From assembly GCF_009931435.1 (NCBI RefSeq), contig NZ_CP043414.1: a stretch of DNA of 64,000 nucleotides, one strand, 5' to 3'. This DNA is from Escherichia coli (lineage in GTDB: Bacteria; Pseudomonadota; Gammaproteobacteria; Enterobacterales; Enterobacteriaceae). The first letter of the stretch is position 1. Each line of letters begins with the position of its first letter. Positions 17,013 to 37,253 of this stretch are shown piece after piece. The position numbers and the translations under genes were made by a program. The notes below the pieces were generated by a model. That model was not told the origin of the DNA and did no database searches. It saw nothing but the letters and a program-made list of their open reading frames with translations.

Positions 17013-17031
17013 TGGTAACCCCTTAATGTGA

Positions 17032-17055
17032 CGTTATGTAGGCGACAATATAACG
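17032..17055. promoter_or_regulatory. ModE operator at modABC promoter
   Basis: Minus-strand reading cgttatattgtcgcctacataacg matches the remembered ModE site; located 20 nt upstream of modA ATG. Confidence 0.7.
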
Positions 17056-17140
17056 GCAAGTTCAGAATTTTCCCAGCAGTTATTGCTAACCTTTGTGAGG
17101 TTGATGAAAAAAATATCGGCAGGAAAAGCAGGAAGTTGAG

Positions 17141-17170
17141 AAAAAGAAAATGCCCGACTAAGCGGGCATT
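17141..17170 (-). terminator. Rho-independent terminator of acrZ
   Basis: Stem atgcccg / cgggcat with 6-nt loop, followed on the minus strand by TTTTCTTTTT. Confidence 0.6.
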
Positions 17171-17177
17171 CAGAGAA

Positions 17178-17345
<168 letters not shown>

Positions 17346-17455
17346 TCATGAGACTATTCTAACCGCTAAGCACAGAAAAGCACTCCCCTTTTGTGCGGTC
17401 AGCTTTGCGTGGCGTTCGTTTTCCGTCACAATAAGACTTTTGCCAGGACATTGTT

Positions 17456-18244
17456 ATGCAGGCCGAAATCCTTCTCACCCTTAAGCTCCAACAAAAATTA
17501 TTCGCCGACCCGCGCCGCATTTCGTTACTAAAACACATTGCGCTTTCCGGTTCCATTAGCCAGGGAGCGAAAGATGCCGGTATCAGCTATAAAAGCGCCT
17601 GGGATGCCATTAACGAGATGAATCAGTTAAGTGAGCATATTCTGGTTGAGCGCGCAACAGGCGGTAAAGGTGGCGGCGGCGCAGTACTGACCCGCTATGG
17701 TCAGCGACTGATTCAGCTCTATGATTTACTGGCGCAAATCCAGCAAAAAGCCTTTGATGTGTTAAGTGACGATGACGCCTTGCCGCTGAACAGCCTGCTG
17801 GCCGCGATCTCACGTTTTTCACTGCAGACCAGTGCCCGTAACCAGTGGTTTGGCACCATCACCGCCCGCGATCATGATGACATTCAACAACATGTTGATG
17901 TCTTACTGGCCGATGGCAAAACACGCCTTAAAGTCGCGATTACCGCACAAAGTGGCGCACGTCTGGGACTGGATGAAGGCAAAGAAGTGTTGATTCTGCT
18001 GAAAGCGCCGTGGGTGAACATTACTCAGGATGACACTGTCGCCCAGGGTGCCGACAACCAATTGCCGGGCATTATTCGTCATATAGAGCGCGGTGCAGAA
18101 CAGTGCGAAGTATTAATGGCGTTACCTGACGGGCAAACTCTGTGCGCCACGGTGCCGATAAATGAAGCAGCTTCTCTTGAACAAGGGCAGAATGCCACGG
18201 CTTACTTTAACGCCGACAGCGTGATTATCGCTACGCTTTGCTAA
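17456..18244 (+). CDS. modE: molybdate-responsive transcriptional regulator
   Basis: 262 aa ORF divergent from acrZ/modABC. Confidence 0.95.
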   Translation: MQAEILLTLKLQQKLFADPRRISLLKHIALSGSISQGAKDAGISYKSAWDAINEMNQLSEHILVERATGGKGGGGAVLTRYGQRLIQLYDLLAQIQQKAFDVLSDDDALPLNSLLAAISRFSLQTSARNQWFGTITARDHDDIQQHVDVLLADGKTRLKVAITAQSGARLGLDEGKEVLILLKAPWVNITQDDTVAQGADNQLPGIIRHIERGAEQCEVLMALPDGQTLCATVPINEAASLEQGQNATAYFNADSVIIATLC

Positions 18245-18311
18245 GCGTGTTGACAATTTGTTATGAAACACGTATCCCTGTCAGTAATCGCTGCAAAAAA
18301 TGGGATATAAA

Positions 18312-19784
18312 ATGTCATCGTTGCAAATTTTGCAAGGCACGTTTCGTCTTAGCGACACAAAAACGCTGCAATTGTCTCAGCTAACGTTAAACGCGGGTGA
18401 TAGTTGGGCGTTTGTCGGTTCGAATGGAAGCGGGAAGTCGGCGCTGGCCCGCGCGCTGGCGGGGGAACTTCCGTTTTTGAAAGGTGAACGACAAAGTCAG
18501 TTTTCCCACATCACTCGTCTCTCCTTCGAGCAATTGCAAAAGCTCGTCAGCGACGAATGGCAACGGAATAACACCGATATGCTCGGCCCTGGCGAAGATG
18601 ACACCGGACGCACTACGGCTGAAATCATTCAGGATGAAATTAAGGATGCACAGCGTTGTGCGCAGTTGGCGCAGCAGTTCGGCATTACCGCCCTTCTCGA
18701 CCGACGCTTTAAATACCTTTCCACTGGCGAGACGCGAAAAACCCTGCTGTGTCAGGCGCTGATGTCGGAGCCAGACTTGTTGATTCTTGATGAGCCGTTC
18801 GATGGCCTGGATGTTGCCTCACGTCAGCAGCTGGCTGAGCGACTCGCCTCGTTACATCAGTCCGGTATTACCCTGGTACTGGTGCTCAATCGCTTCGATG
18901 AGATCCCGGAATTTGTCCAGTTTGCTGGCGTGCTGGCGGATTGCACGTTAGCGGAAACTGGTGCTAAAGAGGAACTGCTGCAACAGGCACTTGTCGCGCA
19001 ACTGGCGCATAGCGAGCGGCTAGAAGGTGTACAACTGCCGGAGCCGGATGTACCTTCAGCACGTCACGCCTTACCCGCCAACGAACCGCGCATTGTGCTG
19101 AACAATGGCGTGGTTTCTTATAACGATCGCCCCATTCTTAATAACCTTAGCTGGCAGGTGAATCCAGGCGAACACTGGCAAATTGTCGGGCCAAATGGCG
19201 CGGGAAAATCGACGCTATTAAGCCTGATTACAGGCGATCATCCGCAAGGTTACAGCAACGATTTAACACTTTTCGGCCGACGTCGCGGCAGCGGCGAAAC
19301 CATCTGGGACATCAAAAAGCATATCGGTTACGTCAGCAGTAGTTTGCATCTGGATTACCGGGTCAGCACTACCGTGCGTAATGTGATCCTTTCTGGCTAT
19401 TTTGATTCGATTGGCATTTATCAGGCCGTTTCAGATCGCCAGCAAAAACTGGTGCAGCAGTGGCTGGATATTCTCGGCATTGATAAACGCACGGCTGACG
19501 CGCCTTACCATAGTCTTTCCTGGGGACAGCAACGTCTGGCGCTGATCGTCCGCGCGCTGGTGAAACATCCGACGTTGCTTATTCTCGATGAACCACTACA
19601 GGGGCTTGATCCGCTCAATCGCCAGCTTATCCGCCGGTTTGTTGATGTGCTGATTAGCGAAGGTGAAACGCAATTGTTGTTTGTTTCGCACCACGCCGAA
19701 GATGCGCCTGCCTGTATTACCCATCGTCTTGAGTTCGTGCCGGACGGTGAACTCTATCGCTATGTGCTGACAAAAATAAACTGA
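18312..19784 (+). CDS. modF: ABC-type ATPase ModF (two ABC domains)
   Basis: ORF 18300-19784; start placed at Met5 (MSSLQILQG) giving 490 aa; two Walker A motifs. Confidence 0.9.
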   Translation: MSSLQILQGTFRLSDTKTLQLSQLTLNAGDSWAFVGSNGSGKSALARALAGELPFLKGERQSQFSHITRLSFEQLQKLVSDEWQRNNTDMLGPGEDDTGRTTAEIIQDEIKDAQRCAQLAQQFGITALLDRRFKYLSTGETRKTLLCQALMSEPDLLILDEPFDGLDVASRQQLAERLASLHQSGITLVLVLNRFDEIPEFVQFAGVLADCTLAETGAKEELLQQALVAQLAHSERLEGVQLPEPDVPSARHALPANEPRIVLNNGVVSYNDRPILNNLSWQVNPGEHWQIVGPNGAGKSTLLSLITGDHPQGYSNDLTLFGRRRGSGETIWDIKKHIGYVSSSLHLDYRVSTTVRNVILSGYFDSIGIYQAVSDRQQKLVQQWLDILGIDKRTADAPYHSLSWGQQRLALIVRALVKHPTLLILDEPLQGLDPLNRQLIRRFVDVLISEGETQLLFVSHHAEDAPACITHRLEFVPDGELYRYVLTKIN

Positions 19785-19800
19785 GTCGGTAATGCTGACT

Positions 19801-19836
19801 GTACCGGAGGCGGCCTAAGCGCCCTCTCCGGCCTAC
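19801..19836. repeat. REP-like palindromic element downstream of modF
   Basis: ccggaggcggcc...gccctctccggcctac resembles REP. Confidence 0.45.
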
Positions 19837-19952
19837 AGTTCGACGCATCCAGGCATGAAACCGCGTCTTTTTTTTCAGATAAAAAGCGCAATCATTCATA
19901 AAGCCGCTGTTTTATAATCACTTAATCGCGCATAAAAAACGGCTAAATTCTT

Positions 19953-19968
19953 GTGTAAACGATTCCAC
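19953..19968. promoter_or_regulatory. gal external operator OE (GalR/GalS)
   Basis: gtgtaaacgattccac upstream of galE. Confidence 0.65.
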
Positions 19969-19971
19969 TAA

Positions 19972-19993
19972 TTTATTCCATGTCACACTTTTC
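19972..19993. promoter_or_regulatory. CRP site of gal P1/P2 region
   Basis: tttattccatgtcacacttttc adjacent to the tatgctatggtt -10 elements (20004-20014). Confidence 0.55.
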
Positions 19994-20046
19994 GCATCTT
20001 TGTTATGCTATGGTTATTTCATACCATAAGCCTAATGGAGCGAATT

Positions 20047-21063
20047 ATGAGAGTTCTGGTTACCGGTGGTAGCGGTTACATTGGAAGTCATACCTGTGTG
20101 CAATTACTGCAAAACGGTCATGATGTCATCATTCTTGATAACCTCTGTAACAGTAAGCGCAGCGTACTGCCTGTTATCGAGCGTTTAGGCGGCAAACATC
20201 CAACGTTTGTTGAAGGCGATATCCGTAACGAAGCGTTGATGACCGAGATCCTGCACGATCACGCTATCGACACCGTGATCCACTTCGCCGGGCTAAAAGC
20301 CGTTGGCGAATCGGTACAAAAACCGCTGGAATATTACGACAACAATGTCAACGGCACCCTGCGCCTGATTAGCGCCATGCGCGCCGCTAACGTCAAAAAC
20401 TTTATTTTTAGCTCCTCCGCCACCGTTTATGGCGATCAGCCCAAAATTCCATATGTTGAAAGCTTCCCGACCGGCACACCGCAAAGCCCTTACGGCAAAA
20501 GCAAGCTGATGGTGGAACAGATCCTCACCGATCTGCAAAAAGCCCAGCCGGACTGGAGCATTGCCCTGCTGCGCTATTTCAACCCGGTTGGCGCGCATCC
20601 GTCGGGCGATATGGGCGAAGATCCGCAAGGTATTCCGAATAACCTGATGCCATACATCGCCCAGGTTGCTGTAGGCCGTCGCGACTCGCTGGCGATTTTT
20701 GGTAACGATTATCCGACCGAAGACGGTACTGGCGTGCGCGATTACATCCACGTAATGGATCTGGCGGACGGTCACGTCGTGGCGATGGAAAAACTGGCGA
20801 ACAAGCCAGGCGTACACATCTACAACCTCGGCGCTGGCGTGGGCAGCAGCGTGCTGGACGTGGTTAATGCCTTCAGCAAAGCCTGCGGCAAACCGGTTAA
20901 TTATCATTTTGCACCGCGTCGCGAGGGCGACCTTCCGGCCTACTGGGCGGACGCCAGCAAAGCCGACCGTGAACTGAACTGGCGCGTAACGCGCACACTC
21001 GATGAAATGGCGCAGGACACCTGGCACTGGCAGTCACGCCATCCACAGGGATATCCCGATTAA
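20047..21063 (+). CDS. galE: UDP-glucose 4-epimerase
   Basis: ORF 20005-21063; start placed at ATG 20047 (MRVLVTGGSGYIGSH, Rossmann motif) giving 338 aa. Confidence 0.95.
   Translation: MRVLVTGGSGYIGSHTCVQLLQNGHDVIILDNLCNSKRSVLPVIERLGGKHPTFVEGDIRNEALMTEILHDHAIDTVIHFAGLKAVGESVQKPLEYYDNNVNGTLRLISAMRAANVKNFIFSSSATVYGDQPKIPYVESFPTGTPQSPYGKSKLMVEQILTDLQKAQPDWSIALLRYFNPVGAHPSGDMGEDPQGIPNNLMPYIAQVAVGRRDSLAIFGNDYPTEDGTGVRDYIHVMDLADGHVVAMEKLANKPGVHIYNLGAGVGSSVLDVVNAFSKACGKPVNYHFAPRREGDLPAYWADASKADRELNWRVTRTLDEMAQDTWHWQSRHPQGYPD
20066..20081. promoter_or_regulatory. gal internal operator OI inside galE
   Basis: gtggtagcggttacat within the first codons of galE. Confidence 0.6.
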
Positions 21064-21072
21064 GGAACGACC

Positions 21073-22119
21073 ATGACGCAATTTAATCCCGTTGATCATC
21101 CACATCGCCGCTACAACCCGCTCACCGGGCAATGGATTCTGGTTTCACCGCACCGCGCTAAGCGCCCCTGGCAGGGGGCGCAGGAAACGCCAGCCAAACA
21201 GGTGTTACCTGCGCACGATCCAGATTGCTTCCTCTGCGCAGGTAATGTGCGGGTGACAGGCGATAAAAACCCCGATTACACCGGGACTTACGTTTTCACT
21301 AATGACTTTGCGGCCTTGATGTCTGACACGCCAGATGCGCCAGAAAGCAACGATCCTTTGATGCGTTGTCAGAGCGCGCGCGGTACCAGCCGGGTGATCT
21401 GCTTTTCACCGGATCACAGTAAAACGCTGCCAGAACTGAGCGTTGCGGCATTGACGGAAATCGTCAAAACCTGGCAGGAGCAAACCGCAGAACTGGGGAA
21501 AACATACCCGTGGGTGCAGGTCTTTGAAAACAAAGGCGCGGCGATGGGCTGCTCTAACCCGCATCCGCACGGACAGATTTGGGCAAATAGCTTCCTGCCT
21601 AACGAAGCTGAGCGCGAAGACCGCCTGCAAAAAGAATATTTCGCCGGGCAGAAATCACCAATGCTGGTGGATTATGTTCAGCGCGAGCTGGCAGACGGTA
21701 GCCGTACCGTTGTCGAAACCGAACACTGGTTAGCCGTTGTGCCTTACTGGGCTGCCTGGCCGTTCGAAACGCTACTGCTGCCCAAAGCCCACGTTTTGCG
21801 GATCACCGATTTGACCGACGCCCAGCGCAGCGATTTGGCGCTGGCGTTGAAAAAGCTGACCAGTCGTTATGACAACCTCTTCCAGTGCTCCTTCCCCTAC
21901 TCTATGGGCTGGCACGGCGCGCCATTTAATGGCGAAGAGAATCAACACTGGCAGCTGCACGCGCACTTTTATCCGCCTCTGTTACGCTCCGCCACCGTAC
22001 GTAAATTTATGGTTGGTTATGAAATGCTGGCAGAGACCCAGCGAGACCTGACCGCAGAACAGGCAGCAGAGCGTTTGCGCGCAGTCAGCGATATCCATTT
22101 TCGCGAATCCGGAGTGTAA
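21073..22119 (+). CDS. galT: galactose-1-phosphate uridylyltransferase
   Basis: 348 aa ORF with HPHGQ active-site motif. Confidence 0.95.
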
Positions 22120-22122
22120 GAA

Positions 22123-23271
22123 ATGAGTCTGAAAGAAAAAACACAATCTCTGTTTGCCAACGCATTTGGCTACCCTGCCACTCACACCATTCAGGCGCCT
22201 GGCCGCGTGAATTTGATTGGTGAACACACCGACTACAACGACGGTTTCGTTCTGCCCTGCGCGATTGATTATCAAACCGTGATCAGTTGTGCACCACGCG
22301 ATGACCGTAAAGTTCGCGTGATGGCAGCCGATTATGAAAATCAGCTTGACGAGTTTTCCCTTGATGCGCCTATTGTCGCACATGAAAACTATCAATGGGC
22401 TAACTACGTCCGTGGCGTAGTGAAACATCTGCAACTGCGTAACAACAACTTTGGCGGTGTGGACATGGTGATCAGCGGCAATGTGCCGCAGGGTGCAGGG
22501 TTAAGTTCTTCCGCTTCACTGGAAGTCGCGGTCGGAACCGTATTGCAGCAACTTTATCATCTGCCGCTGGACGGCGCACAAATCGCACTTAACGGCCAGG
22601 AAGCAGAAAACCAGTTTGTTGGCTGTAACTGTGGGATCATGGATCAGCTGATTTCCGCGCTCGGCAAAAAAGATCATGCCTTGCTGATCGATTGCCGCTC
22701 ACTGGGCACCAAAGCGGTTTCCATGCCGAAAGGTGTGGCTGTCGTCATCATCAACAGTAACTTCAAACGTACCCTGGTTGGCAGCGAATACAACACCCGT
22801 CGTGAACAGTGCGAAACCGGCGCGCGTTTCTTCCAGCAGCCAGCCCTGCGCGATGTCACTATTGAGGAGTTCAACGCTGTTGCACATGAACTGGACCCGA
22901 TCGTGGCGAAACGCGTGCGTCATATCCTGACTGAAAACGCCCGTACCGTTGAAGCAGCCAGCGCACTGGAGCAAGGCGACCTGAAACGTATGGGCGAGTT
23001 GATGGCGGAGTCTCATGCTTCTATGCGCGATGATTTCGAAATCACCGTGCCGCAAATTGACACTCTGGTAGAAATCGTCAAAGCTGTGATTGGCGACAAA
23101 GGTGGCGTACGCATGACTGGCGGCGGATTTGGCGGCTGTATCGTCGCACTGATCCCGGAAGAGCTGGTGCCTGCCGTACAGCAGGCTGTCGCTGAACAAT
23201 ATGAAGCAAAAACAGGTATTAAAGAGACTTTTTACGTTTGTAAACCATCACAAGGAGCAGGACAGTGCTGA
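22123..23271 (+). CDS. galK: galactokinase
   Basis: 382 aa GHMP kinase ORF. Confidence 0.95.
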
Positions 23272-24305
23272 ACGAAACTCCCGCACTGGCACCCGATGGT
23301 CAGCCGTACCGACTGTTAACTTTGCGGAACAACGCAGGGATGGTAGTCACGCTGATGGACTGGGGTGCGACTTTACTTTCCGCCCGTATTCCGCTTTCCG
23401 ATGGCAGCGTCCGCGAGGCGCTGCTTGGCTGCGCCAGCCCGGAATGCTATCAGGATCAGGCCGCGTTTCTGGGGGCCTCTATTGGTCGTTATGCCAACCG
23501 CATCGCCAATAGCCGTTATACCTTTGACGGTGAAACCGTGACGCTTTCGCCAAGTCAGGGCGTTAACCAGCTGCACGGCGGCCCGGAAGGGTTCGACAAA
23601 CGTCGCTGGCAGATTGTAAATCAGAACGATCGTCAGGTGCTATTTGCCCTGAGTTCAGAAGACGGCGATCAAGGCTTTCCGGGGAATCTCGGCGCGACAG
23701 TGCAGTATCGTCTGACCGACGATAACCGTATCTCCATTACTTATCGCGCCACAGTTGATAAACCTTGCCCGGTGAATATGACTAATCACGTCTATTTCAA
23801 CCTCGACGGCGAGCAGTCTGACGTGCGCAATCACAAGTTGCAGATTCTGGCGGACGAATATCTGCCGGTTGATGAAGCCGGTATTCCGCACGACGGTCTG
23901 AAATCTGTCGCCGGAACATCTTTTGATTTCCGCAGCGCCAAAATCATCGCCAGTGAGTTTCTTGCCGACGACGAACAGCGCAAAGTGAAAGGTTACGATC
24001 ATGCGTTCTTGTTACAGGCCAAAGGCGATGGCAAGAAAGTGGCGGCGCATGTCTGGTCAGCAGATGAAAAATTGCAGCTGAAGGTCTACACCACCGCTCC
24101 GGCTCTGCAATTCTACTCCGGCAACTTCCTCGGCGGCACACCGTCGCGGGGAACCGAACCTTACGCCGACTGGCAAGGGCTGGCGTTGGAAAGCGAGTTT
24201 CTGCCGGACAGCCCGAACCACCCTGAATGGCCGCAACCGGACTGTTTCCTGCGTCCTGGCGAAGAGTATTCCAGCCTGACGGAATATCAGTTTATTGCTG
24301 AGTAA
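23265..24305 (+). CDS. galM: aldose 1-epimerase (galactose mutarotase)
   Basis: 346 aa ORF overlapping galK end by 7 nt. Confidence 0.95.
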
Positions 24306-24507
24306 TGTTAAGCCCTCGTCATGAGGGCTTTATCCTCATATTGTTCAAATCACCAGCAAACACCGACATATTTGCAACTCAATATTCACAACAACCTTAC
24401 ACTGCGACACTATTTTCGCTATGGTTATGCGTAAGCATTGCTGTTGCTTCGTCACGGCAATATAATGAGAATTATTATCATTAAAAGATGATTTGAGGAG
24501 TAAGTAT

Positions 24508-25260
24508 ATGGCTGTAACTAAGCTGGTTCTGGTTCGTCATGGCGAAAGTCAGTGGAACAAAGAAAACCGTTTCACCGGTTGGTACGACGTGGATCTGTCT
24601 GAGAAAGGCGTAAGCGAAGCAAAAGCAGCTGGTAAGCTGCTGAAAGAGGAAGGTTACAGCTTTGATTTTGCTTACACCTCTGTGCTGAAACGCGCTATCC
24701 ATACCCTGTGGAATGTGCTGGACGAACTGGATCAGGCATGGCTGCCCGTTGAGAAATCCTGGAAACTGAACGAACGTCACTACGGTGCGTTGCAGGGTCT
24801 GAACAAAGCGGAAACTGCTGAAAAGTATGGCGACGAGCAGGTGAAACAGTGGCGTCGTGGTTTTGCGGTAACTCCGCCGGAACTGACTAAAGATGATGAG
24901 CGTTATCCGGGCCACGATCCACGTTACGCGAAGCTGAGCGAGAAAGAGCTGCCACTGACGGAAAGCCTGGCGCTGACCATTGACCGCGTGATCCCTTACT
25001 GGAATGAAACTATTCTGCCGCGAATGAAGAGCGGTGAGCGCGTGATCATCGCCGCACACGGTAACTCGTTACGTGCGCTGGTGAAATATCTCGATAATAT
25101 GAGCGAAGAAGAGATTCTTGAGCTGAATATCCCGACTGGCGTGCCACTGGTTTATGAATTCGACGAGAATTTCAAACCGCTGAAACGCTATTATCTGGGT
25201 AATGCTGACGAGATCGCGGCGAAAGCAGCGGCCGTTGCTAACCAGGGTAAAGCGAAGTAA
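24508..25260 (+). CDS. gpmA: 2,3-bisphosphoglycerate-dependent phosphoglycerate mutase
   Basis: ORF 24493-25260; start placed at ATG 24508 ([17 protein letters not shown]) giving 250 aa. Confidence 0.95.
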
Positions 25261-25284
25261 ACGTCATTCGCTTAAAAATGAGAA

Positions 25285-25312
25285 AGCCGACTGCAAGTGA
25301 GTCGGCTTTTTT
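25285..25312 (+). terminator. Rho-independent terminator of gpmA
   Basis: 8-bp stem agccgact / agtcggct, 7-nt loop, followed by TTTTTT. Confidence 0.7.
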
Positions 25313-25334
25313 GTTGCTAACAATGGAGCACATT

Positions 25335-25408
25335 GCCTGATGCGACGCTGCGCGTCTTATCAGGCCTACGGTGATTCATCGGATAACCACTGTGACGGCG
25401 CATCCGAC
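25335..25408. repeat. REP/BIME element between gpmA and aroG
   Basis: gcctgatgcgacgctgcgcgtcttatcaggcctac plus inverted partner. Confidence 0.7.
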
Positions 25409-25417
25409 AATTAAACT

Positions 25418-26470
25418 TTACCCGCGACGCGCTTTTACTGCATTCGCCAGTTGACGTAACAGAGCATCGGTATCTTCCCAGCCAATGCAGGCATCGGTGA
25501 TGCTCTTGCCATAGGCCAGCGGTTCCCCACTCTCGAGGCTCTGATTGCCTTCCACCAGATGGCTTTCCACCATCACGCCAATAATGGCCTTTTCGCCACC
25601 GGCAATCTGCTGGCAAACGTCAGCACAAACATCCATCTGCTTTTTGAATTGTTTCGACGAGTTAGCATGGCTGAAATCGATCATCACCTGTGCTGGCAGG
25701 CCTGCTTTGTTCAGCCCTTCTTTCACTTCAGCAACGTGCTTCGCGCTGTAGTTAGGCTCTTTACCACCGCGCAGAATGATATGGCAATCGCCGTTACCGC
25801 TGGTATTCACAATCGCCGAATGCCCCCATTTCGTTACGGACAGGAAGCAGTGCGGCGCACCGGCGGCATTAATGGCATCGATAGCCACTTTAATCGTACC
25901 GTCGGTGCCATTTTTGAAGCCGACCGGACAAGAAAGACCAGACGCCAGTTCGCGGTGCACCTGCGATTCCGTAGTACGTGCGCCAATTGCCCCCCAACTC
26001 ATCAGGTCCGCGAGATATTGTGGGGTGATCATATCGAGAAATTCACCCGCTGCTGGCAAACCGCTGTCGTTAATATCAAGCAGCAATTTACGGGCAATAC
26101 GCAGACCGTCGTTGATCTGGAAGCTGTTATCCATATGCGGATCGTTAATCAGCCCTTTCCAGCCCACCGTGGTACGCGGCTTTTCAAAATAGACGCGCAT
26201 CACGATTTCCAGCTCATCTTGCAGCTCTTCACGCAGCGCCAGCAAGCGAGTGGCATACTCTTTAGCCGCGACGGGATCATGAATAGAACACGGACCAATC
26301 ACCACCAACAGGCGATCATCATTACCTTTCAGGATCTTATGGATCGCTTTTCGGGCATGGGCAACCGTATTCGCGGCATTTTCAGTAGCAGGGAATTTTT
26401 CCAGCAATGCGACAGGAGGAAGTAACTCTTTGATTTCTTTGATTCGTAAATCGTCGTTCTGATAATTCAT
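25418..26470 (-). CDS. aroG: DAHP synthase, Phe-sensitive
   Basis: 350 aa ORF. Confidence 0.95.
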   Translation of the reverse strand: MNYQNDDLRIKEIKELLPPVALLEKFPATENAANTVAHARKAIHKILKGNDDRLLVVIGPCSIHDPVAAKEYATRLLALREELQDELEIVMRVYFEKPRTTVGWKGLINDPHMDNSFQINDGLRIARKLLLDINDSGLPAAGEFLDMITPQYLADLMSWGAIGARTTESQVHRELASGLSCPVGFKNGTDGTIKVAIDAINAAGAPHCFLSVTKWGHSAIVNTSGNGDCHIILRGGKEPNYSAKHVAEVKEGLNKAGLPAQVMIDFSHANSSKQFKKQMDVCADVCQQIAGGEKAIIGVMVESHLVEGNQSLESGEPLAYGKSITDACIGWEDTDALLRQLANAVKARRG

Positions 26471-26540
26471 GTCTGTTCCAGTGTTGCCATACTTATCTTA
26501 GTGAATGCAATACTTCCAATCTATATCTTCCGTCAGAATG

Positions 26541-26558
26541 TGTAAACGGGGTTTTACA
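26541..26558. promoter_or_regulatory. TyrR box upstream of aroG
   Basis: tgtaaacggggttttaca fits TGTAAA-N6-TTTACA. Confidence 0.55.
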
Positions 26559-26785
26559 CTATGAACGGATTAATCCTGGAATTAGCAAGAAAAACGCCAG
26601 ATTGTCGCGAAAAACGAGATCTCTCCTACAATTTCTAACTGTAACTCCTTTGTTTGTTAATTATTTCAAGATTCTCTGCTGGGTATCTTTGCCTGGCTGA
26701 AATCTTAAACCATTGCCTTATATTCACCTGCAAATGCACTGTTGGAAGAGGTTATCCGACATAACGACCATAACAGGAGCATCCT

Positions 26786-27109
26786 ATGAAAATGACAAAA
26801 CTGGCCACACTATTTTTGACTGCCACTCTAAGCCTTGCCAGCGGTGCCGCACTGGCTGCCGATAGCGGAGCGCAAAGCAATAACGGCCAAGCAAACGCCG
26901 CAGCTGATGCGGGCCAGGTAGCCCCTGATGCCCGTGAAAATGTCGCGCCAAATAACGTCGACAATAACGGGGTAAATACCGGTTCTGGCGGCACAATGCT
27001 GCATCCGGATGGTTCTTCAATGAACAATGACGGCATGACCAAAGATGAAGAGCACAAGAACACCATGTGCAAAGATGGTCGCTGCCCGGATATCAATAAA
27101 AAAGTCTAA
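26786..27109 (+). CDS. ybgS: periplasmic protein YbgS, C-terminally truncated allele
   Basis: 107 aa ORF with signal peptide; same frame stays open a further 19 codons (TGDGINNDVDTKTDGTTQ) to TAA at 27164-27166, which would give the 126 aa K-12 length. Confidence 0.8.
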
Positions 27110-27279
27110 ACCGGTGATGGCATCAACAATGATGTCGATACCAAAACCGACGGTACCACGCAGTAAGCCTGCGAAATAGCCAATAATGGGAGAGCGGAGT
27201 CTCTCCCTTTTAATTTTTCCCTTCTAAAAGCAGTATGATGTCATAAAGTTAAGTGAGAATAATTAAGGGATGACTCGTC

Positions 27280-28221
27280 ATGGCGCACTCACACTCACAC
27301 ACTTCCTCACACCTGCCAGAAGATAATAATGCTCGTCGCTTGTTGTATGCTTTCGGCGTGACTGCCGGGTTTATGCTCGTAGAAGTCATTGGTGGTTTTC
27401 TTTCCGGTTCTCTGGCATTGCTGGCCGATGCGGGTCATATGTTGACCGATACTGCCGCCCTGCTTTTCGCCCTACTCGCAGTGCAATTCTCCCGTCGTCC
27501 TCCCACCATTCGCCACACTTTCGGTTGGCTAAGATTGACCACGCTCGCGGCGTTTGTGAATGCCATCGCCCTGGTGGTGATTACTATTTTGATTGTCTGG
27601 GAGGCGATAGAACGCTTCCGCACGCCGCGTCCGGTCGAGGGCGACATGATGATGGCAATTGCCGTGGCTGGGCTACTGGCAAATATACTTTCTTTCTGGT
27701 TACTTCATCACGGCAGCGAAGAGAAAAACCTCAACGTGCGCGCAGCGGCACTGCATGTCCTCGGGGACCTTCTGGGTTCGGTTGGAGCTATTATTGCCGC
27801 GTTGATTATTATCTGGACCGGCTGGACACCTGCTGACCCCATTCTCTCAATACTGGTGTCGCTTCTGGTTCTGCGTAGCGCGTGGCGACTGTTGAAAGAT
27901 AGCGTGAATGAATTACTTGAAGGTGCACCGGTATCGCTGGATATCGCCGAACTGAAGCGTCGTATGTGCCGGGAAATCCCGGAAGTCCGCAATGTGCACC
28001 ATGTGCATGTTTGGATGGTGGGTGAAAAGCCAGTGATGACACTGCATGTACAGGTGATCCCGCCACACGATCACGACGCGTTGTTGGATCAGATCCAACA
28101 TTATCTGATGGATCACTATCAGATTGCACACGCCACCATCCAGATGGAATATCAACCTTGTCATGGGCCAGACTGCCACCTGAATGAAGGGGTGTCTGGC
28201 CATTCACATCATCATCATTAA
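27280..28221 (+). CDS. zitB: Zn(II) efflux transporter, CDF family
   Basis: 313 aa ORF with His-rich termini; 4-nt convergent overlap with pnuC. Confidence 0.93.
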
Positions 28222-28937
28222 TGGGACAGCGCGCGTGAACCTCTTTCGCGTGCGCTGTTGATCCACATCCGGCTGCCGTTGAGGGCAATAAAGGTCAGGA
28301 TGATGTACTCCAGAGACATGGCGTAAACGCCCTGAAGTGCAAAAATAACGACGCTAATCACGTTAATAATCACCCACAATAGCCAGTTTTCCACATACTT
28401 ACGCGTCATCAGAATCATTGCCACGATAGATAACACCATCATGCAGGAATCCCAGAACGGGAAAGCGTCCGGTTGCAGTTCAGGCATCGCAACCTGTAAT
28501 CCTAATGCTTGCATGATCATGACTGCCACGCGGGTCAAAAATGCAAACACCGGATTGATAAATACCGTCATCAGACCAACCGAAACAACGCAAACCGCCA
28601 ACCAGCTGAGCGCCTTCGGCAATGGCAACCAGCGAATTTTCAACTCCGCCTCGTTCTGACTGGTTTGTCGCGACCACGCATACCAACCGTAAATATTCGC
28701 GGCAAAGAAAAACACCTGTAATAGCAGGCTGGCATACAGCTGAATCTGAAAGAAAATAATGCCAAACAAGGTGACGTTGATCAGGCCAAAGAAGTAGTTG
28801 CTGATCTTCTCCAGACTGGCAAGGCCAATACACAGCAACCCGGCGATCGTGCCTACCGCTTCGATCCATGAGAGATCATAACCGCCTGCTCCTATTGGTA
28901 TATGTACCAGGATATTCTGCACACTAAAAAAATCCAT
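28218..28937 (-). CDS. pnuC: nicotinamide riboside transporter
   Basis: 239 aa membrane ORF downstream of nadA. Confidence 0.93.
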
Positions 28938-28974
28938 CTTTCCCCCAAAGCGTAACGTGACGCCTTATTATTAG

Positions 28975-30018
28975 TTATCCACGTAGTGTAGCCGCAAAAT
29001 CCAGCATACGATTGAGCGGCACCAGCGCCTTCTCTCGCAGCTTTTCCTCAACATGAACCTCGTGATTGCTTCCTTCCTGTTCTAATGCCTCTGCGATGGC
29101 CTGAAGGCCATTCATGGCCATCCACGGACAATGCGCGCAGCTGCGGCAGGTTGCGCCCTCACCCGCGGTTGGTGCTTCCAGTAACTCTTTATCTGGCACC
29201 GCCTGCTGCATTTTGTAGAAAATACCCCGATCGGTTGCCACGATAAGTCGCTGATGTGGCAATGTTTTCGCAGCAGCGATCAGTTGACTGGTGGAACCGA
29301 CCGCATCCGCCATATCTACAATAGCTTGCGGTGATTCTGGATGCACCAGTATGGCAGCATCCGGGTATTGTTTTTGCAAGCGGGTTAACGCCTGAGTCTT
29401 AAATTCATCATGCACAATGCAGGCACCCTGCCAGCATAAAATGTCTGCGCCCGTCTGTTTTTGCACGTAACGCCCCAGATGTTTGTCGGGTGCCCAGATG
29501 ATTTTTTCACCCAAACTATCCAGATGATCAATAAGTTCGACGGCAATGCTTGAAGTTACCACCCAATCTGCCCGCGCTTTTACCGCAGCAGAAGTGTTGG
29601 CGTAGACGACGACAGTATGATCGGGATGGGCATCGCAAAATGCGTTAAATTCTTCAACAGGGCAGCCGAGATCCAGTGAACATTCAGCCTGAAGTGTCGG
29701 CATCAGAATTGTTTTTTCCGGACTGAGAATTTTGGCGGTTTCTCCCATAAATCTCACCCCAGCGACTAACAACGTAGAAGCGGGATGCTTTGCACCGAAG
29801 CGCGCCATTTCCAGAGAATCAGAAATACAGCCACCGGTTTCTTCTGCCAGTTGTTGAATTTCGGGATCGGTATAGTAGTGGGCAACCATCACCGCATTAC
29901 GTTCTTTTAGCAGACGTTTTATCTTCTCGCGGTAATACGCTTTTTCATCAATGCTTAACGGCGTCGGCTTCGGGGGGAAAGGATAAATCGCCGCTTCAGG
30001 ATCAAACATCACGCTCAT
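28975..30018 (-). CDS. nadA: quinolinate synthase A
   Basis: 347 aa ORF. Confidence 0.95.
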
Positions 30019-30090
30019 CTTACCATCTCGTTTTACAGGCTTAACATTAAAACCGACATAAGCGTGATATTCGCTATTATCGGCATAATT

Positions 30091-30108
30091 TGTTTTATAT
30101 GCTAAACA
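30091..30108. promoter_or_regulatory. NadR (NAD box) operator upstream of nadA
   Basis: tgttttatatgctaaaca fits TGTTTA-N6-TAAACA. Confidence 0.6.
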
Positions 30109-30264
30109 AGATAGTCGAATGGTGGGGAAAAGTCACTCGAAATACGTATGAGATGACGAATGCCACACTTTGCGTCTTATTCCTCCGACGTAGAGTCGTT
30201 TACGCAGCAAGCGCGGAGTATGTCATCAGGGTCAAGAATTGAAATTGAGAGATGCCTGAATAGC

Positions 30265-30291
30265 AAAAAAGCGCCTTTAGGGCGCTTTTTT
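30265..30291 (-). terminator. duplicated copy of lysQ-distal terminator hairpin
   Basis: aaaaaagcgcc-tttag-ggcgctttttt; identical to the copy at 30421-30447. Confidence 0.55.
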
Positions 30292-30295
30292 ACAT

Positions 30296-30401
30296 TGGTG
30301 GGTCGTGCAGGATGACTCACTTCGCTCGCCCTTCGGGCCGTCGCCGCAAGCGGCTCCGTTGTTTCGCTGCGCTCTACTCGAACCTGCAGCAGGTTCGAAT
30401 C
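30296..30401. repeat. tRNA-Lys-derived remnant
   Basis: Starts with the 3-prime-terminal 17 nt of tRNA-Lys then diverges; ends with an inverted T-arm-like segment gcaggttcgaatc. Confidence 0.6.
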
Positions 30402-30420
30402 TTTGAATATCGCAGATAGC

Positions 30421-30447
30421 AAAAAAGCGCCTTTAGGGCGCTTTTTT
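30421..30447 (-). terminator. Rho-independent terminator after lysQ
   Basis: Hairpin agcgcc-tttag-ggcgct flanked by A and T runs, immediately 3-prime of the last tRNA. Confidence 0.65.
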
Positions 30448-30451
30448 ACAT

Positions 30452-30527
30452 TGGTGGGTCGTGCAGGATTCGAACCTGCGACCAATTGATTAAAAGTCAA
30501 CTGCTCTACCAACTGAGCTAACGACCC
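30452..30527 (-). tRNA. lysQ: tRNA-Lys (UUU)
   Basis: 76-nt exact reverse complement of tRNA-Lys, anticodon loop CTTTTAA, CCA encoded. Confidence 0.95.
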
Positions 30528-30559
30528 CTTGCGGGATTATGCTGCTTTAATCATTCAGG

Positions 30560-30632
30560 ATGGTGGGTCGTGCAGGATGACTCGACTTCGTCTCGCCCTT
30601 CGGGCCGTTGCTGACGCAACGTTATCCTTCAC
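30560..30632. repeat. intergenic spacer repeat of the tRNA operon (tRNA-Lys 3-prime-end-like)
   Basis: tggtgggtcgtgcaggatgactcgacttcgtctcgcccttcgggccgttgctgacgcaacgttatccttcac; near-identical at 31276-31347. Confidence 0.7.
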
Positions 30633-30659
30633 ATTCTCTACCAGTAACCACCTTTAAAT

Positions 30660-30735
30660 TGGTGGGTCGTGCAGGATTCGAACCTGCGACCAATTGATTA
30701 AAAGTCAACTGCTCTACCAACTGAGCTAACGACCC
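30660..30735 (-). tRNA. lysZ: tRNA-Lys (UUU)
   Basis: 76-nt copy identical to lysQ. Confidence 0.95.
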
Positions 30736-30783
30736 ATACGGGTGTTACCTGAATGATTTCTACTCGGGACCAATCTTTAATAT

Positions 30784-30853
30784 TGGTGGATCGTGCAGGA
30801 TGACTCGCTTCGCTCGCCCTACGGGCCGTTGCTGGCGCAACGTTATCCTTCAC
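30784..30853. repeat. intergenic spacer repeat (diverged copy)
   Basis: tggtggatcgtgcaggatgactcgcttcgctcgccctacgggccgttgctggcgcaacgttatccttcac. Confidence 0.65.
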
Positions 30854-30881
30854 GCTTAACATCTGAGTTTGATGTTAAAAC

Positions 30882-30957
30882 TGGTGGGTCGTGCAGGATT
30901 CGAACCTGCGACCAATTGATTAAAAGTCAACTGCTCTACCAACTGAGCTAACGACCC
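30882..30957 (-). tRNA. lysY: tRNA-Lys (UUU)
   Basis: 76-nt copy identical to lysQ. Confidence 0.95.
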
Positions 30958-30960
30958 GAG

Positions 30961-31036
30961 TGGTGGGTGATGACGGGATCGAACCGCCGACCCCCTCCTT
31001 GTAAGGGAGGTGCTCTCCCAGCTGAGCTAATCACCC
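30961..31036 (-). tRNA. valZ: tRNA-Val (UAC)
   Basis: Reverse complement of tRNA-Val, anticodon loop CTTACAA, T-loop GGTTCGATCC. Confidence 0.93.
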
Positions 31037-31086
31037 GATACTGCGCTGGATACTACAAACTACTTCCACCGAACCCACCGCATTAG

Positions 31087-31162
31087 TGGTGGGTCGTGCA
31101 GGATTCGAACCTGCGACCAATTGATTAAAAGTCAACTGCTCTACCAACTGAGCTAACGACCC
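31087..31162 (-). tRNA. lysW: tRNA-Lys (UUU)
   Basis: 76-nt copy identical to lysQ. Confidence 0.95.
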
Positions 31163-31164
31163 GG

Positions 31165-31240
31165 TGGTGGGTGATGACGGGTTCGAACCGCCGACCCCCT
31201 CCTTGTAAGGGAGGTGCTCTCCCAGCTGAGCTAATCACCC
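31165..31240 (-). tRNA. valT: tRNA-Val (UAC), T-loop variant
   Basis: Same as valZ except one base (GGTTCGAACC instead of GGTTCGATCC). Confidence 0.9.
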
Positions 31241-31275
31241 GATACTACGCTGGATACTACAACTAACTAGGTTAG

Positions 31276-31347
31276 TGGTGGGTCGTGCAGGATGACTCGA
31301 CTTCGTCTCGCCCTTCGGGCCGTTGCTGACGCAACGTTATCCTTCAC
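31276..31347. repeat. intergenic spacer repeat of the tRNA operon
   Basis: Near-identical to 30560-30632. Confidence 0.7.
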
Positions 31348-31375
31348 GTTTTACTACCGCTTCCACCTTAGCGAT

Positions 31376-31451
31376 TGGTGGGTCGTGCAGGATTCGAACC
31401 TGCGACCAATTGATTAAAAGTCAACTGCTCTACCAACTGAGCTAACGACCC
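31376..31451 (-). tRNA. lysT: tRNA-Lys (UUU), first gene of operon
   Basis: 76-nt copy identical to lysQ. Confidence 0.95.
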
Positions 31452-31615
31452 ACTTTTTCGTTGCTTTCGGTTTGTTTGATATCCCGTGGCAACGGCGGCA
31501 TATATTACTGATTTCAGACTTGAGCGCAACAAAAATTTCGATGTAGATCACTCAACTGCTTATGATTCGCACGACACGACCAGAAATAATGCAACTTCTG
31601 GTCGTGTGTTATGCA

Positions 31616-32407
31616 TTACATCGCGTTCAGACGTTTTTGCGCCTGTTTTGCGCCATCAGTACCAGGGTATTTACTGATAACCTGCTGGTATACGGCTTTC
31701 GCTTTTGCGGTGTCACCTTTGTCCTGCATGATGACGCCGACTTTAAACATCGCATCTGCAGCCTTCGGTGACTTCGGATAGTTTTTCACTACCGAAGCAA
31801 AATAATACGCCGCATCATCTTTTTTACCCTTGTTGTAGTTTAACTGACCCAGCCAATAATTGGCGTTTGGCAGATAAGTTGAATCAGGGTAATTTTTGAT
31901 GAAATTCTGAAATGCCACCATTGCGTCATCCTGGCGGGATTTATCCTGCACCAGCGCAATAGCTGCATTGTAATCCGTGTTTGCATCACCGCTTTTCACC
32001 GGCGCGCCAGCATTCGCAGTACCAGCATCAGCTGTCGGCGTCGTTGATGCCGCCGCACCGCTTTGATCGCCGCTGGTTGATTGCGCCGCTGCACCACCGC
32101 TGCTGAGGCTATCGATCTGCAACAGGATCTGCTTTTGCCGCTCCACGACCTGATTCAGTTGATACTGATTTTCCTGAATCTGACCACGCAGGGAATCAAT
32201 ATCGGATTGATTATCAGAGAGTTGTTGCTGGAGTTGGGTTAAAAGCTGGCTGTGAGCATTAGAAATACGCTCAAGTTGAGTGACGCGGTCTTCGACCGAG
32301 CCTGAGCCGACACTACTGATTGGTGCCTGAGCAAAAGCGGCCCAGGGGGCCGCTATACCAACCAGTAACGACAGACTCAATAGTTGATGTCTGAAGTTAC
32401 TGCTCAT
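31616..32407 (-). CDS. cpoB: cell division coordinator CpoB (YbgF), TPR protein
   Basis: 263 aa ORF with signal peptide, Gln-rich coiled coil and TPR C-terminus. Confidence 0.93.
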   Translation of the reverse strand: MSSNFRHQLLSLSLLVGIAAPWAAFAQAPISSVGSGSVEDRVTQLERISNAHSQLLTQLQQQLSDNQSDIDSLRGQIQENQYQLNQVVERQKQILLQIDSLSSGGAAAQSTSGDQSGAAASTTPTADAGTANAGAPVKSGDANTDYNAAIALVQDKSRQDDAMVAFQNFIKNYPDSTYLPNANYWLGQLNYNKGKKDDAAYYFASVVKNYPKSPKAADAMFKVGVIMQDKGDTAKAKAVYQQVISKYPGTDGAKQAQKRLNAM

Positions 32408-32416
32408 GCAATTCTC

Positions 32417-32962
<546 letters not shown>

Positions 32963-32972
32963 TTAATTATTA

Positions 32973-34265
32973 TCACAGATACGGCGACCAGGCAGGGAAT
33001 TTGACCTGTCCATCAGTTGCCGGAAGACGCGCTTTGAAACGCCCATCTGTAGAAACCAAATTCAGCACGGATCCCATCCCCTGAGAAGAGCTGTAGATTA
33101 CCATAGTGCCGTTAGGTGCCAGACTTGGCGTTTCATCCAGGAACGTGGACGACAGAACTTGTACGCCTCCCGTTGCCAGATCTTGTTTGGCAATGTGCTG
33201 CTGCCCACCATTGGAGCTGACCATTACCATAAATTTACCGTCGCTGCTGACATCCGCATCCTGGTTCTGCGAACCTTCCCAGGTAATACGTTGTGGCGCA
33301 CCGCCGTTGATATTCACTTTATAAACCTGCGGACGACCGGCCTGGTCAGAAGTAAATGCCAGGTTCTGGCTGTCCGGGAACCAGGTCGGTTCGGTATTGT
33401 TACTGCGACCATCAGTCACCTGGCGGATCTGACCAGAAGCCAAATCCATTACGTACAGGTTCAGGCTACCGGTTTTCGACAAGGCGAATGCCAGTTTGCT
33501 GCCGTCTGGCGAGAATGCTGGTGCACCGTTGTGACGCGGGAATGAAGCCACCTGACGTACAGCACCATTTGCCAGCGTTTGAATAACCAGCGCTGAACGA
33601 CCGCTCTCGAAAGTCACATAGGCCAGTTTAGAACCATCCGGTGACCATGCCGGAGACATCAGCGGCTGCGGAGAACGGTGAACGACAAACTGGTTGTAAC
33701 CGTCATAGTCAGATACGCGCAGTTCATACGGGAACTGACCGCCATTGGTCTGAACAACGTAGGCAATACGGGTACGGAACGCACCTTTAATGCCGGTCAG
33801 TTTTTCAAACACTTCATCACTGGCGGTATGACCAGCATAACGCAGCCACTGCTTGTTCACTTTGTACGAGTTCTGAGCAAGTACAGTACCCGGTGCGCCG
33901 CCAGTGTCAACCAGCTGATAAGCAACATTGTAAGAGCCGTCCGGATTCGGAGTGACCTGGCCGACAACCACAGCGTCAATGCCCAGCGCAGACCATGCTG
34001 CTGGTTGTACTTCCTGTGCACTACCCGGCTGCTGTGGCAGACGAGCGCGATCTAATGGATTAAATTTACCGCTGTTACGCAAGTCAGCAGCAACGATGCC
34101 GCCAATATCTTCAGGTGCTGCACCAGGACCCGCCCACTGGAAAGGAACAACGCCAATAGGACGACCGGAATCTACACCGCTGTCGATCACAATGCGGACT
34201 TCAGCATGCAGAACTGATGCCCACAGTATGAGAAAACCAAATGCTACTCGTAATGCCTGCTTCAT
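32973..34265 (-). CDS. tolB: Tol-Pal system periplasmic protein TolB
   Basis: ORF 431 aa; second Met gives 430 aa; beta-propeller repeats. Confidence 0.95.
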
Positions 34266-34397
34266 CATATCTCCCTTATCTGGACCGATGGCCCACGATA
34301 ATTTAGCAGAATGTTAACAAACTAAAATACACAAAACTACCAGAACCCCGTGGCAACCGGTGTCTGATGTTGACCGTCGGAACAGTCAGCATCGCGA

Positions 34398-35663
34398 TTA
34401 CGGTTTGAAGTCCAATGGCGCGTTTTTGAACACTTCATATACTGCCTGGCTTGGTGGTTTCGGGATCTTCGCAAGTTTAGCTGCTGCCAACGCAGCCTGA
34501 CAAAGTGCGGGATCGCCACCTTCAGGTTTGATATCCAGTAACATACCATCGGGTGCCAGTTTTATGCGCAGCGTACAGGTCTTGCCTGCATAGGACGATG
34601 CGTCATAGAACTTACTTTCGATAGCAGATTTAATCTGCCCGGCATAGTTATTGATATCGGCCCCTGATGCGCCATTGTTTTTAGTATTACCACTCCCGGC
34701 AGGCGAAGCATTGTTCCCTTTCGCCCCTCCCCCCGTTTTCGGTGCATTCTTACCAGAGCTTAGCTCACCGAAAATATCATCTGCCTCTGCGGCCGCTTTT
34801 GCTGCAGCGGCTTTTTCAGCTGCAGCTTTTGCCGCTGCCGCTTTTTTGTCTGCGGCGGCTTTTTCTGCCGCTGCTTTCTTATCAGCTGCTGCCTTTTCAG
34901 CAGCCGCTTTTTCTGCTGCTTTTTTGTCGGCTGCAGCTTTCTCTGCCGCTGCTTTCTTATCAGCTGCTGCCTTTTCAGCAGCCGCTTTCTTCTCAGCTTC
35001 TGCCTTGGTTTTTTCAGCAGCTTCAGTTGCCGCTTTTTTTCTTGCTTCAGCTGCAGCTGCTTCTGCCGCTTCCGCTTTCTTCTTCAGCGCCGCAGCGGCT
35101 GCTTCGGCTTTTTTCTGCGCTTCGGCTGCGGCTTTGGCTGCTTCTGCTTCTGCTTTTTTCTTCGCGTCTGCAGCCGCTTTCTTCGCTGCTTCTTCCGCAG
35201 CTTTTGCATCCGCTTCAGCCTTCGCTTTAGCATCTGCAGCCGCTTTCGCTGCCGCCTCTTCCGCTTGCTTCTGCTTTAACTCGGCCTGTTTTGCGGCTTC
35301 TTCAGCCTGCTTTTTCTGCTCCTGAGCCGCTAACCGCTCTTTCTCAAGTTGCTTCAGGCGTTCCTGTTCAGCCGCTTGTTTCTCACGCAGTTCTTCCGCA
35401 GCCTGCTGTTCCTTCATCTTGCGCTGCTCATCAGAACGCTTCGCGCTTGATTCCTGGCTTTGCATGCGTTTGTACTGCTCAACTACCGCACCTGAATCAA
35501 CCATTACAGCGTCGATGGACGAACCACCGCCGCCTCCGGCTGAAGCTTCTATATTCTCATCGAACGAACTCCAGATCAGCGCCGCAAATAAGATGACATG
35601 CAGCACTGCTGAAATAATTATCGCCCGCTTGAGCTTGTCGTTTTGTTCGGTTGCCTTTGACAC
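34398..35663 (-). CDS. tolA: Tol-Pal system protein TolA
   Basis: 421 aa ORF with long Ala/Lys/Glu-rich helical domain II, which generates the DNA-level repetitiveness at 34740-35300. Confidence 0.95.
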   Translation of the reverse strand: MSKATEQNDKLKRAIIISAVLHVILFAALIWSSFDENIEASAGGGGGSSIDAVMVDSGAVVEQYKRMQSQESSAKRSDEQRKMKEQQAAEELREKQAAEQERLKQLEKERLAAQEQKKQAEEAAKQAELKQKQAEEAAAKAAADAKAKAEADAKAAEEAAKKAAADAKKKAEAEAAKAAAEAQKKAEAAAAALKKKAEAAEAAAAEARKKAATEAAEKTKAEAEKKAAAEKAAADKKAAAEKAAADKKAAEKAAAEKAAADKKAAAEKAAADKKAAAAKAAAEKAAAAKAAAEADDIFGELSSGKNAPKTGGGAKGNNASPAGSGNTKNNGASGADINNYAGQIKSAIESKFYDASSYAGKTCTLRIKLAPDGMLLDIKPEGGDPALCQAALAAAKLAKIPKPPSQAVYEVFKNAPLDFKP

Positions 35664-35727
35664 TCTCGGTTTCCAAAAACTGTTCGCCTGTTACCCGCTC
35701 TCTTTCAAGCAAGGGAAACGCAGATGT

Positions 35728-36156
35728 TTAGATAGGCTGCGTCATTAAACCAACCGATTTCACACCCGCACTATGTAACAAGTTCAGTGCTTTAATTATT
35801 TCATCGTAAGGCACATCTTTTGCGCCACCGATCAGAAAGACCGTTTTCGGGTTGGCCTTGAAACGGCTGGACACTTCCGCCACCACCTGCTCTGGTGGTA
35901 AACGCTCCAGGCGATCTTTCTCAACCACCACGGTGTACTGACCAATACCAGACACTTCAACAATCACTGGCGGATTATCGTTACTGCTCACCGCCTGTGA
36001 TTCAGTAGCGTCTGGCAGATCGACCTCCACGCTCTGGGTGATGATGGGCGCTGTCGCCATAAAGATCAGCAACAGCACCAGCAGTACGTCCAGCAACGGT
36101 ACAATGTTGATTTCGGACTTGAGATCGCGACGACCTCGTCCACGCGCTCTGGCCAT
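35728..36156 (-). CDS. tolR: Tol-Pal system protein TolR
   Basis: 142 aa ORF. Confidence 0.95.
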   Translation of the reverse strand: MARARGRGRRDLKSEINIVPLLDVLLVLLLIFMATAPIITQSVEVDLPDATESQAVSSNDNPPVIVEVSGIGQYTVVVEKDRLERLPPEQVVAEVSSRFKANPKTVFLIGGAKDVPYDEIIKALNLLHSAGVKSVGLMTQPI

Positions 36157-36159
36157 GGC

Positions 36160-37253
<1,094 letters not shown>

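Follow-up and report, generated by a model that had tools for sequence, protein, structure and literature searches.

A recent nonsense mutation shortens the ybgS product by 19 residues in one clone of Escherichia coli

The ybgS reading frame and the base change

Why the ybgS reading frame closes early is the question raised by this locus. In the window (the whole stretch of 64,000 nucleotides that was analysed), the frame opens with ATG at 26786 and ends ...INKKV before a TAA at 27107-27109, giving a product of 107 amino acids; beyond this stop the frame stays open for 18 more codons, TGDGINNDVDTKTDGTTQ, to another TAA at 27164-27166. The best explanation, and one that we hold with high confidence, is a recent spontaneous C>T change at 27107 that turned codon 108 of ybgS from CAA into TAA. 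The features of the locus are as follows.

25418-26470, minus strand: aroG, the divergent upstream neighbour and a synteny marker, intact (350-aa open reading frame; named aroG at the equivalent place in CFT073 and K-12).
26775-26779, plus strand: Shine-Dalgarno sequence AGGAG, 6 nt 5' of the ybgS ATG, unaltered (read from the sequence).
26786-27109, plus strand: shortened coding sequence of ybgS, made up of 107 codons and the premature TAA (open reading frame list; Pfam PF13985, 175.7 bits).
26786-26857, plus strand: Sec signal peptide of YbgS, 24 codons, followed by residues AD (residues match the YbgS characterised by mass spectrometry, PMC8629258).
27068-27085, plus strand: Cys95...Cys100 (CKDGRC), the disulfide pair, lying 5' of the stop and thus kept (alignment; PMC8629258).
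27107, plus strand: C>T transition, codon 108 CAA (Gln) to TAA (ochre) (comparison with clone-mates, CFT073 and K-12).
27110-27166, plus strand: orphaned 3' end of ybgS, codons 109-126 and the ancestral TAA, now untranslated.
27188-27217, plus strand: intrinsic terminator, GGGAGAGCGGAGTCTCTCCC then TTTTAATTTT, between ybgS and zitB (terminator scan).
27280-28221, plus strand: zitB, the downstream neighbour, intact, 313 aa (open reading frame list and K-12 annotation; the exact protein is also found in lineage-mates).

The gene stands at the orthologous position, the order aroG - ybgS - zitB being the same in the window, K-12 and CFT073. Read through from 26786 to 27166, the frame translates to 126 positions, of which only codon 108 is a stop, and ybgS is 381 nt long (126 aa) both in K-12 (b0753, 784937-785317) and in CFT073. 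The sequence-only reading, which had placed a premature TAA and a distal TAA in this frame and had given 126 residues as the length of K-12 YbgS, was exact in the coordinates, as the open reading frame list and the translation show, and right about the length. Its proposal that CAA had become TAA at codon 108 (Q108*) is borne out by the orthologues, as this codon is CAA in K-12, in CFT073 and in two lineage-mates (GCA_002965045.1 and GCA_021109565.1); the alignment with K-12 and other strains, which it had named as a check, has C where the window has T at 27107. The nonsense call rests on this comparison of orthologues, a chance test being inapplicable: an in-frame stop occupies a position that is a sense codon in the orthologues, and the homologous frame continues past the stop.

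Along a 561-nt alignment the window and CFT073 differ at three positions only, namely A/G at 26890, which is synonymous, T/C at 27107, which makes TAA of CAA, and G/C at 27167, just 3' of the distal stop. The upstream region 26700-26785, including the Shine-Dalgarno sequence, is identical in the two, and the 57 nt 3' of the new stop match the intact alleles of CFT073 and both lineage-mates at every base, with no secondary decay.

The surroundings of ybgS vary in other strains. CFT073 lacks about 548 bp of zitB (L001 3595-3969, equivalent to window 27298-27845), and RefSeq annotates its zitB as a pseudogene without the N-terminus; zitB of the window is intact, with 313 aa. A gpmA-aroG-ybgS-like segment with about 81% identity to window 24495-26966 occurs on two plasmids of Klebsiella pneumoniae, 121 kb and 316 kb in size (NZ_CP079601.1 and NZ_OP378648.1), so that a chromosomal block of the ybgS locus is found there on plasmids.

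Direction, age and distribution of the allele

A look-up of the exact ZitB protein of the window recovered the two lineage-mates, both draft assemblies. GCA_021109565.1 is identical to the window over 17280-30347 (13,068 nt) except at 27107, and GCA_002965045.1 over 24280-30347 (6,068 nt) with the same single exception; both have CAA and a ybgS of 126 aa. As these two clone-mates have CAA and are otherwise identical over 6-13 kb, the TAA at codon 108 is derived and very recent, and arose within one clone. Past the identical stretch, four clustered mismatches (30348, 30375, 30388 and 30412) set the window apart from both drafts. They fall between two copies of a 54-bp repeat (30260-30313 and 30416-30469) beside tRNA-Lys genes, and the number of repeat units past 30469 also differs between GCA_021109565.1 and the window; the mismatches probably reflect repeat or assembly variation, not point mutation.

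Among 5,426 complete RefSeq E. coli genomes the best matches to window 17000-37000 reach 98.4-98.7% identity, and the ybgS allele of the window is 99.5% identical to that of phylogroup B2 strains despite this value over 20 kb. The lineage of the window is thus poorly represented in RefSeq, and absence of the T from RefSeq alone is weak evidence. The T allele was searched for with a 61-mer centred on the changed base, in which one mismatch corresponds to 98.4% identity. The exact 61-mer with T was found in none of the 1,150 complete genomes with a B2-like allele, and a synthetic K-12-like 61-mer with T in none of 4,070 further complete genomes; since the B2-like and K-12-like sets cannot overlap, Q108* is absent from all 5,220 complete E. 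coli genomes assessed. The T allele was not found in the GTDB species representatives either, and JGI metagenome contigs, with only seven copies of ybgS present, all wild-type and too few to be informative, gave no T alleles. Q108* is private to one clone, in which it is fixed. A common natural polymorphism at codon 108 was ruled out, Q108 being conserved in E. coli.

Structural damage to ybgS is rare, with one break among 5,425 complete genomes, caused by an IS903B-family insertion. In this swine strain, Z1324SEC0014 (NZ_CM135183.1, 3587-4831), the element lies at about window position 27029 and the 3' end of ybgS is missing; it is the only one of the 5,425 genomes without contiguous coverage of the ybgS region.

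The likeliest evolutionary reading of Q108* is drift, by which a mutation that was neutral or slightly deleterious became fixed in a sub-clone, since with a single event and no recurrence in the 5,220 genomes, drift of a neutral or mildly deleterious allele is the default. We consider it unlikely that the truncation was positively selected, with loss of YbgS function or of its tail being advantageous in the niche of the clone. A case for selection comes from Salmonella Typhimurium carrying an IncHI2 plasmid, where ybgS belonged to a set of 13 genes hit by mutation in at least 45% of the evolved clones and populations and where its deletion raised competitive fitness (PMC9599605), so that loss of YbgS can be beneficial in some settings. 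In addition, YbgS is abundant in stationary phase (PMC8629258) and its loss could save cost, and the insertion in Z1324SEC0014 provides a second E. coli strain with an interrupted gene. Against selection stand the lack of recurrence of Q108*, the single structural disruption in a gene that is otherwise conserved and intact almost everywhere, and the fact that one event cannot tell selection from drift.

Several other length variants of YbgS were encountered. Variant P0019 (135 aa) has a nine-residue in-frame duplication (ANAAADAGQ) and is encoded on a complete E. coli chromosome, and variant P0021 (134 aa) has an eight-residue duplication at the junction of the signal peptide and the N-terminus. 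Variant P0059, with 28 members in Logan assemblies only, is frameshifted at the A-run, probably through homopolymer error; this variant and P0034, an N-terminal miscall, diverge near residue 107 and were set aside as irrelevant. Finally, a 109-aa partial YbgS identical to that of E. coli (P0017, KAB4450377.1) is filed under Bacteroides thetaiotaomicron on a contig of 1,015 nt, and almost certainly entered that assembly as E. coli contamination.

Support for the base at 27107

The T at 27107 has support that is independent of the assembly in hand, including an assembly made directly from reads. First, a contig from the Logan assembly of run SRR11949430, seen in two samples (L014), is 100% identical to window 16786-30289 (13.5 kb), TAA included, and continues past the TAA through the rest of the locus with no branch at the site. 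Its end falls 30 nt inside the 54-bp repeat beginning at 30260, as expected for Logan assemblies with k=31. Second, the exact 107-aa product is present in four GenBank records (NAQ63223.1, QHQ00478.1, QMP79385.1 and QMS25760.1), whose contigs reach lengths of up to 5.2 Mb; the genomes behind these accessions were not found among the 5,426 complete RefSeq E. coli genomes. The four records and the two SRA runs may represent independent isolates or one strain sequenced repeatedly. The sequence-only reading had proposed checking read support at 27107. The Logan assembly supplies this indirectly: it has T without a branch, as assembled reads and not as raw counts.

A look-up of the 107-aa product, indexed in 41 blocks, had pointed to 21 contigs, but this number was dropped as support for the allele, because the places read, with the exception of L014, end after codon 107 without a stop. 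The strains behind the contigs that end there share only 96.8-98.1% identity with the window. An end exactly at 27106, one base before the changed position, is common to at least 12 contigs from diverse, unrelated E. coli samples (places L003-L012 and L015-L021). They are Logan k=31 contigs and one ENA metagenome scaffold, and they have two different 3' alleles; five of them, each from another sample, measure 18,347-18,366 nt. Ten other truncation lengths in the range 101-115 aa served as controls: eight were absent and two occurred on a single contig each.

From the behaviour of k=31 contigs, the accumulation of ends at 27106 implies that the path either branches at 27107 or has a second predecessor at 27076. 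Several causes were rejected. A repeat was ruled out, as 27062-27150 occurs at a single place per genome even at E<=10. A common polymorphism at codon 108 was rejected because Q108 is conserved. A second copy of the gene, on a plasmid or transposed, that stops at 27106 was ruled out too, the 'plasmid' matches being mislabelled chromosomes or Klebsiella-derived segments with other boundaries. So was a structural variant in complete genomes, the sole split record being the IS903B insertion at about 27029. As a mutational cause, a Dcm site or a hairpin near 27107 was looked for by eye, and neither CCWGG nor a convincing stem was seen. What remains for these contig ends is low-level variation within samples or a systematic sequencing error at the site. 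That position 27107 is recurrently variable, and that the ends at 27106 reflect recurrent Q108* variants, we regard as very unlikely. If the breaks did represent C/T heterogeneity within samples, Q108* would be a change that keeps recurring in cultures or hosts; this would point to a hot spot of mutation or to repeated selection against the YbgS tail, in line with the Salmonella experiments (PMC9599605).

The same contig ends bear on the possibility that the T is a sequencing, polishing or assembly error in a strain that truly has CAA and a 126-aa YbgS: the breaking of assemblies of unrelated strains exactly here could hint at a technical problem specific to the site, the T is a single-base difference from otherwise identical relatives, and no complete RefSeq genome has it. 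All the same, an error is highly improbable, as a separate k-mer assembly of SRR11949430, representing two samples, gives T on an unbranched contig, four GenBank protein records, from contigs as long as 5.2 Mb, have exactly the 107-aa product, and the change, being a substitution that lies outside the A-run, is no homopolymer indel.

The shortened protein and its likely course

We return to the nonsense mutation as the preferred reading, with the question of what the protein loses and keeps. The 107-aa product belongs to the YbgS family (Pfam PF13985, 124 positions), scoring 175.7 bits against a cut-off of 27, but it matches profile positions 1-105 only and does not cover the ...KTDGTTQ tail; the read-through sequence of 126 aa scores 207.9 bits and matches positions 1-124. 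The lost 19 residues (QTGDGINNDVDTKTDGTTQ), a conserved acidic C-terminus, therefore fall within the family model. All orthologues aligned (those of Citrobacter koseri, C. amalonaticus, C. freundii, C. farmeri and Pseudocitrobacter faecalis) reach a common C-terminus, with the tail conserved and KTDGTTQ invariant, and K-12 and B2 alleles differ in the tail by one synonymous change only. Cys95 and Cys100 are invariant in the alignment of orthologues, and both are kept in the truncated YbgS.

In pathogenic E. coli, top-down mass spectrometry detected mature YbgS intact at m/z 10469, with the full tail and with the 24-residue signal peptide removed, and MS/MS pointed to an intramolecular disulfide C71-C76 in mature numbering, i.e. 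C95-C100 in the precursor; the authors describe YbgS as a high-copy conserved host protein, abundant in stationary phase (PMC8629258). Residues 1-30 of the window YbgS are identical to those of the protein for which processing was demonstrated and the disulfide deduced by MS/MS, and cleavage is predicted in the window strain also. For the mature truncated protein, with its predicted 83 residues, the expected mass is about 8,497 Da (about 8.5 kDa), the intact form having about 10,459 Da (about 10.46 kDa), and truncation removes three net negative charges from the predicted mature protein. An AlphaFold2 model built from a shallow alignment has a pLDDT of 44.8, too low to be informative, a PDB sequence search returned no YbgS relative, and no NCBIfam model matches the 107-aa or the 126-aa form; the composition, rich in N, D, G and A, fits a protein that may be largely disordered.

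YbgS has been described as a hub among multi-stress-induced genes, together with osmY, dps and wrbA (PMC9501238), and ybgS is listed in the regulon of Crl, which acts through sigma-S (PMC6469107). Purifying selection acts on the tail across genera, which makes loss of function, whether partial or complete, the most likely effect of the allele on this non-essential, stress-induced protein associated with the sigma-S/Crl regulon.

The likely course of expression can be outlined as follows. Translation would stop normally at the UAA, in the context UAAA, to give a 107-aa precursor. Sec export and removal of the 24-residue signal peptide would then yield an 83-residue periplasmic protein of about 8.5 kDa, which should keep the Cys95-Cys100 disulfide loop and lack the 19-residue tail. 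Among stop codons UAA is the least leaky, and because RF1 and RF2 both recognise it, termination should be efficient and full-length YbgS negligible. The promoter, the ribosome-binding site and the terminator are untouched, and with the upstream region and the Shine-Dalgarno sequence identical to those of CFT073, ybgS is presumably still expressed. A polar effect on zitB or other neighbours is not expected, as a good intrinsic terminator (27188-27207 plus a T-run; seven pairs, five of them G-C, and a T-rich tail in the terminator scan) precedes zitB and only 57 extra nucleotides are left untranslated.

Bypass of the stop by an ochre-suppressor tRNA or by programmed readthrough, with full-length YbgS still made, would agree with the perfectly preserved downstream frame and with a lysT-family tRNA cluster 3.3 kb downstream, classical ochre suppressors being known to arise from this cluster. 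Yet the anticodons in the window are unaltered, UUU in all five tRNA-Lys genes and UAC in both tRNA-Val genes, so that none of the seven tRNAs within the window is a suppressor with a UUA anticodon. The stop is, moreover, the least leaky one, with two release factors acting on it, and an intact tail is expected anyway after so recent a mutation, the only SNP in 13 kb. A stop at codon 108 is not conserved among relatives, neither in the 5,220 E. coli genomes nor in the Citrobacter and Pseudocitrobacter alignment. On this evidence, which for the tRNAs covers the window, bypass can hardly be credited.

The idea that the short form is natural or ancestral and the 126-aa form a read-on extension elsewhere, which the sequence-only reading had named as its own refutation, has nothing in its favour beyond the annotated 107-aa records and can practically be dismissed, because the tail is encoded in all E. 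coli genomes assessed, in K-12, CFT073 and the two clone-mates, and in the full-length orthologues of Citrobacter and Pseudocitrobacter, KTDGTTQ is invariant, the Pfam model reaches the C-terminus, and the full-length mature protein has been seen by mass spectrometry (PMC8629258). The mutation thus marks the 107-aa records in GenBank named 'YbgS-like family protein' as truncated alleles and not a natural short isoform.

Apart from annotation and strain typing, the truncation of ybgS matters little. The SNP at 27107 is a clean marker of the sub-clone, being the only difference from the clone-mates over up to 13 kb, and the strain offers a ready-made natural mutant without the tail, in which the role of this invariant C-terminus of YbgS can be studied. 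The protein is abundant and stress-induced, and its loss is reported to ease plasmid cost in Salmonella (PMC9599605).

The mutation is real, very recent and biologically ordinary, neither surprising nor new in kind. Compared with K-12 YbgS (b0753, Pfam PF13985 'YbgS-like protein'), the window product is 98% identical over residues 1-107 and has in common with it the signal peptide, the CKDGRC motif and synteny, but owing to Q108* it lacks residues 108-126 with the conserved ...TKTDGTTQ C-terminus. Other inactivations of ybgS are the IS903B disruption in Z1324SEC0014 and the mutations in evolved Salmonella ATCC 14028 carrying pJXP9 (PMC9599605); these differ from the present case, the former being an insertion at about 27029 and the latter a product of laboratory evolution, whereas here a point nonsense mutation is found in a natural clone. 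Like ordinary strain-specific nonsense alleles of E. coli, this one consists of a single transition, leaves the downstream frame intact, is derived and is confined to one clone. Unlike ordinary nonsense pseudogenes of E. coli, it removes only 15% of a small secreted stress protein, for which reason GenBank names the 107-aa product an ordinary 'YbgS-like family protein' or 'hypothetical protein', and the function of YbgS may be partly kept.
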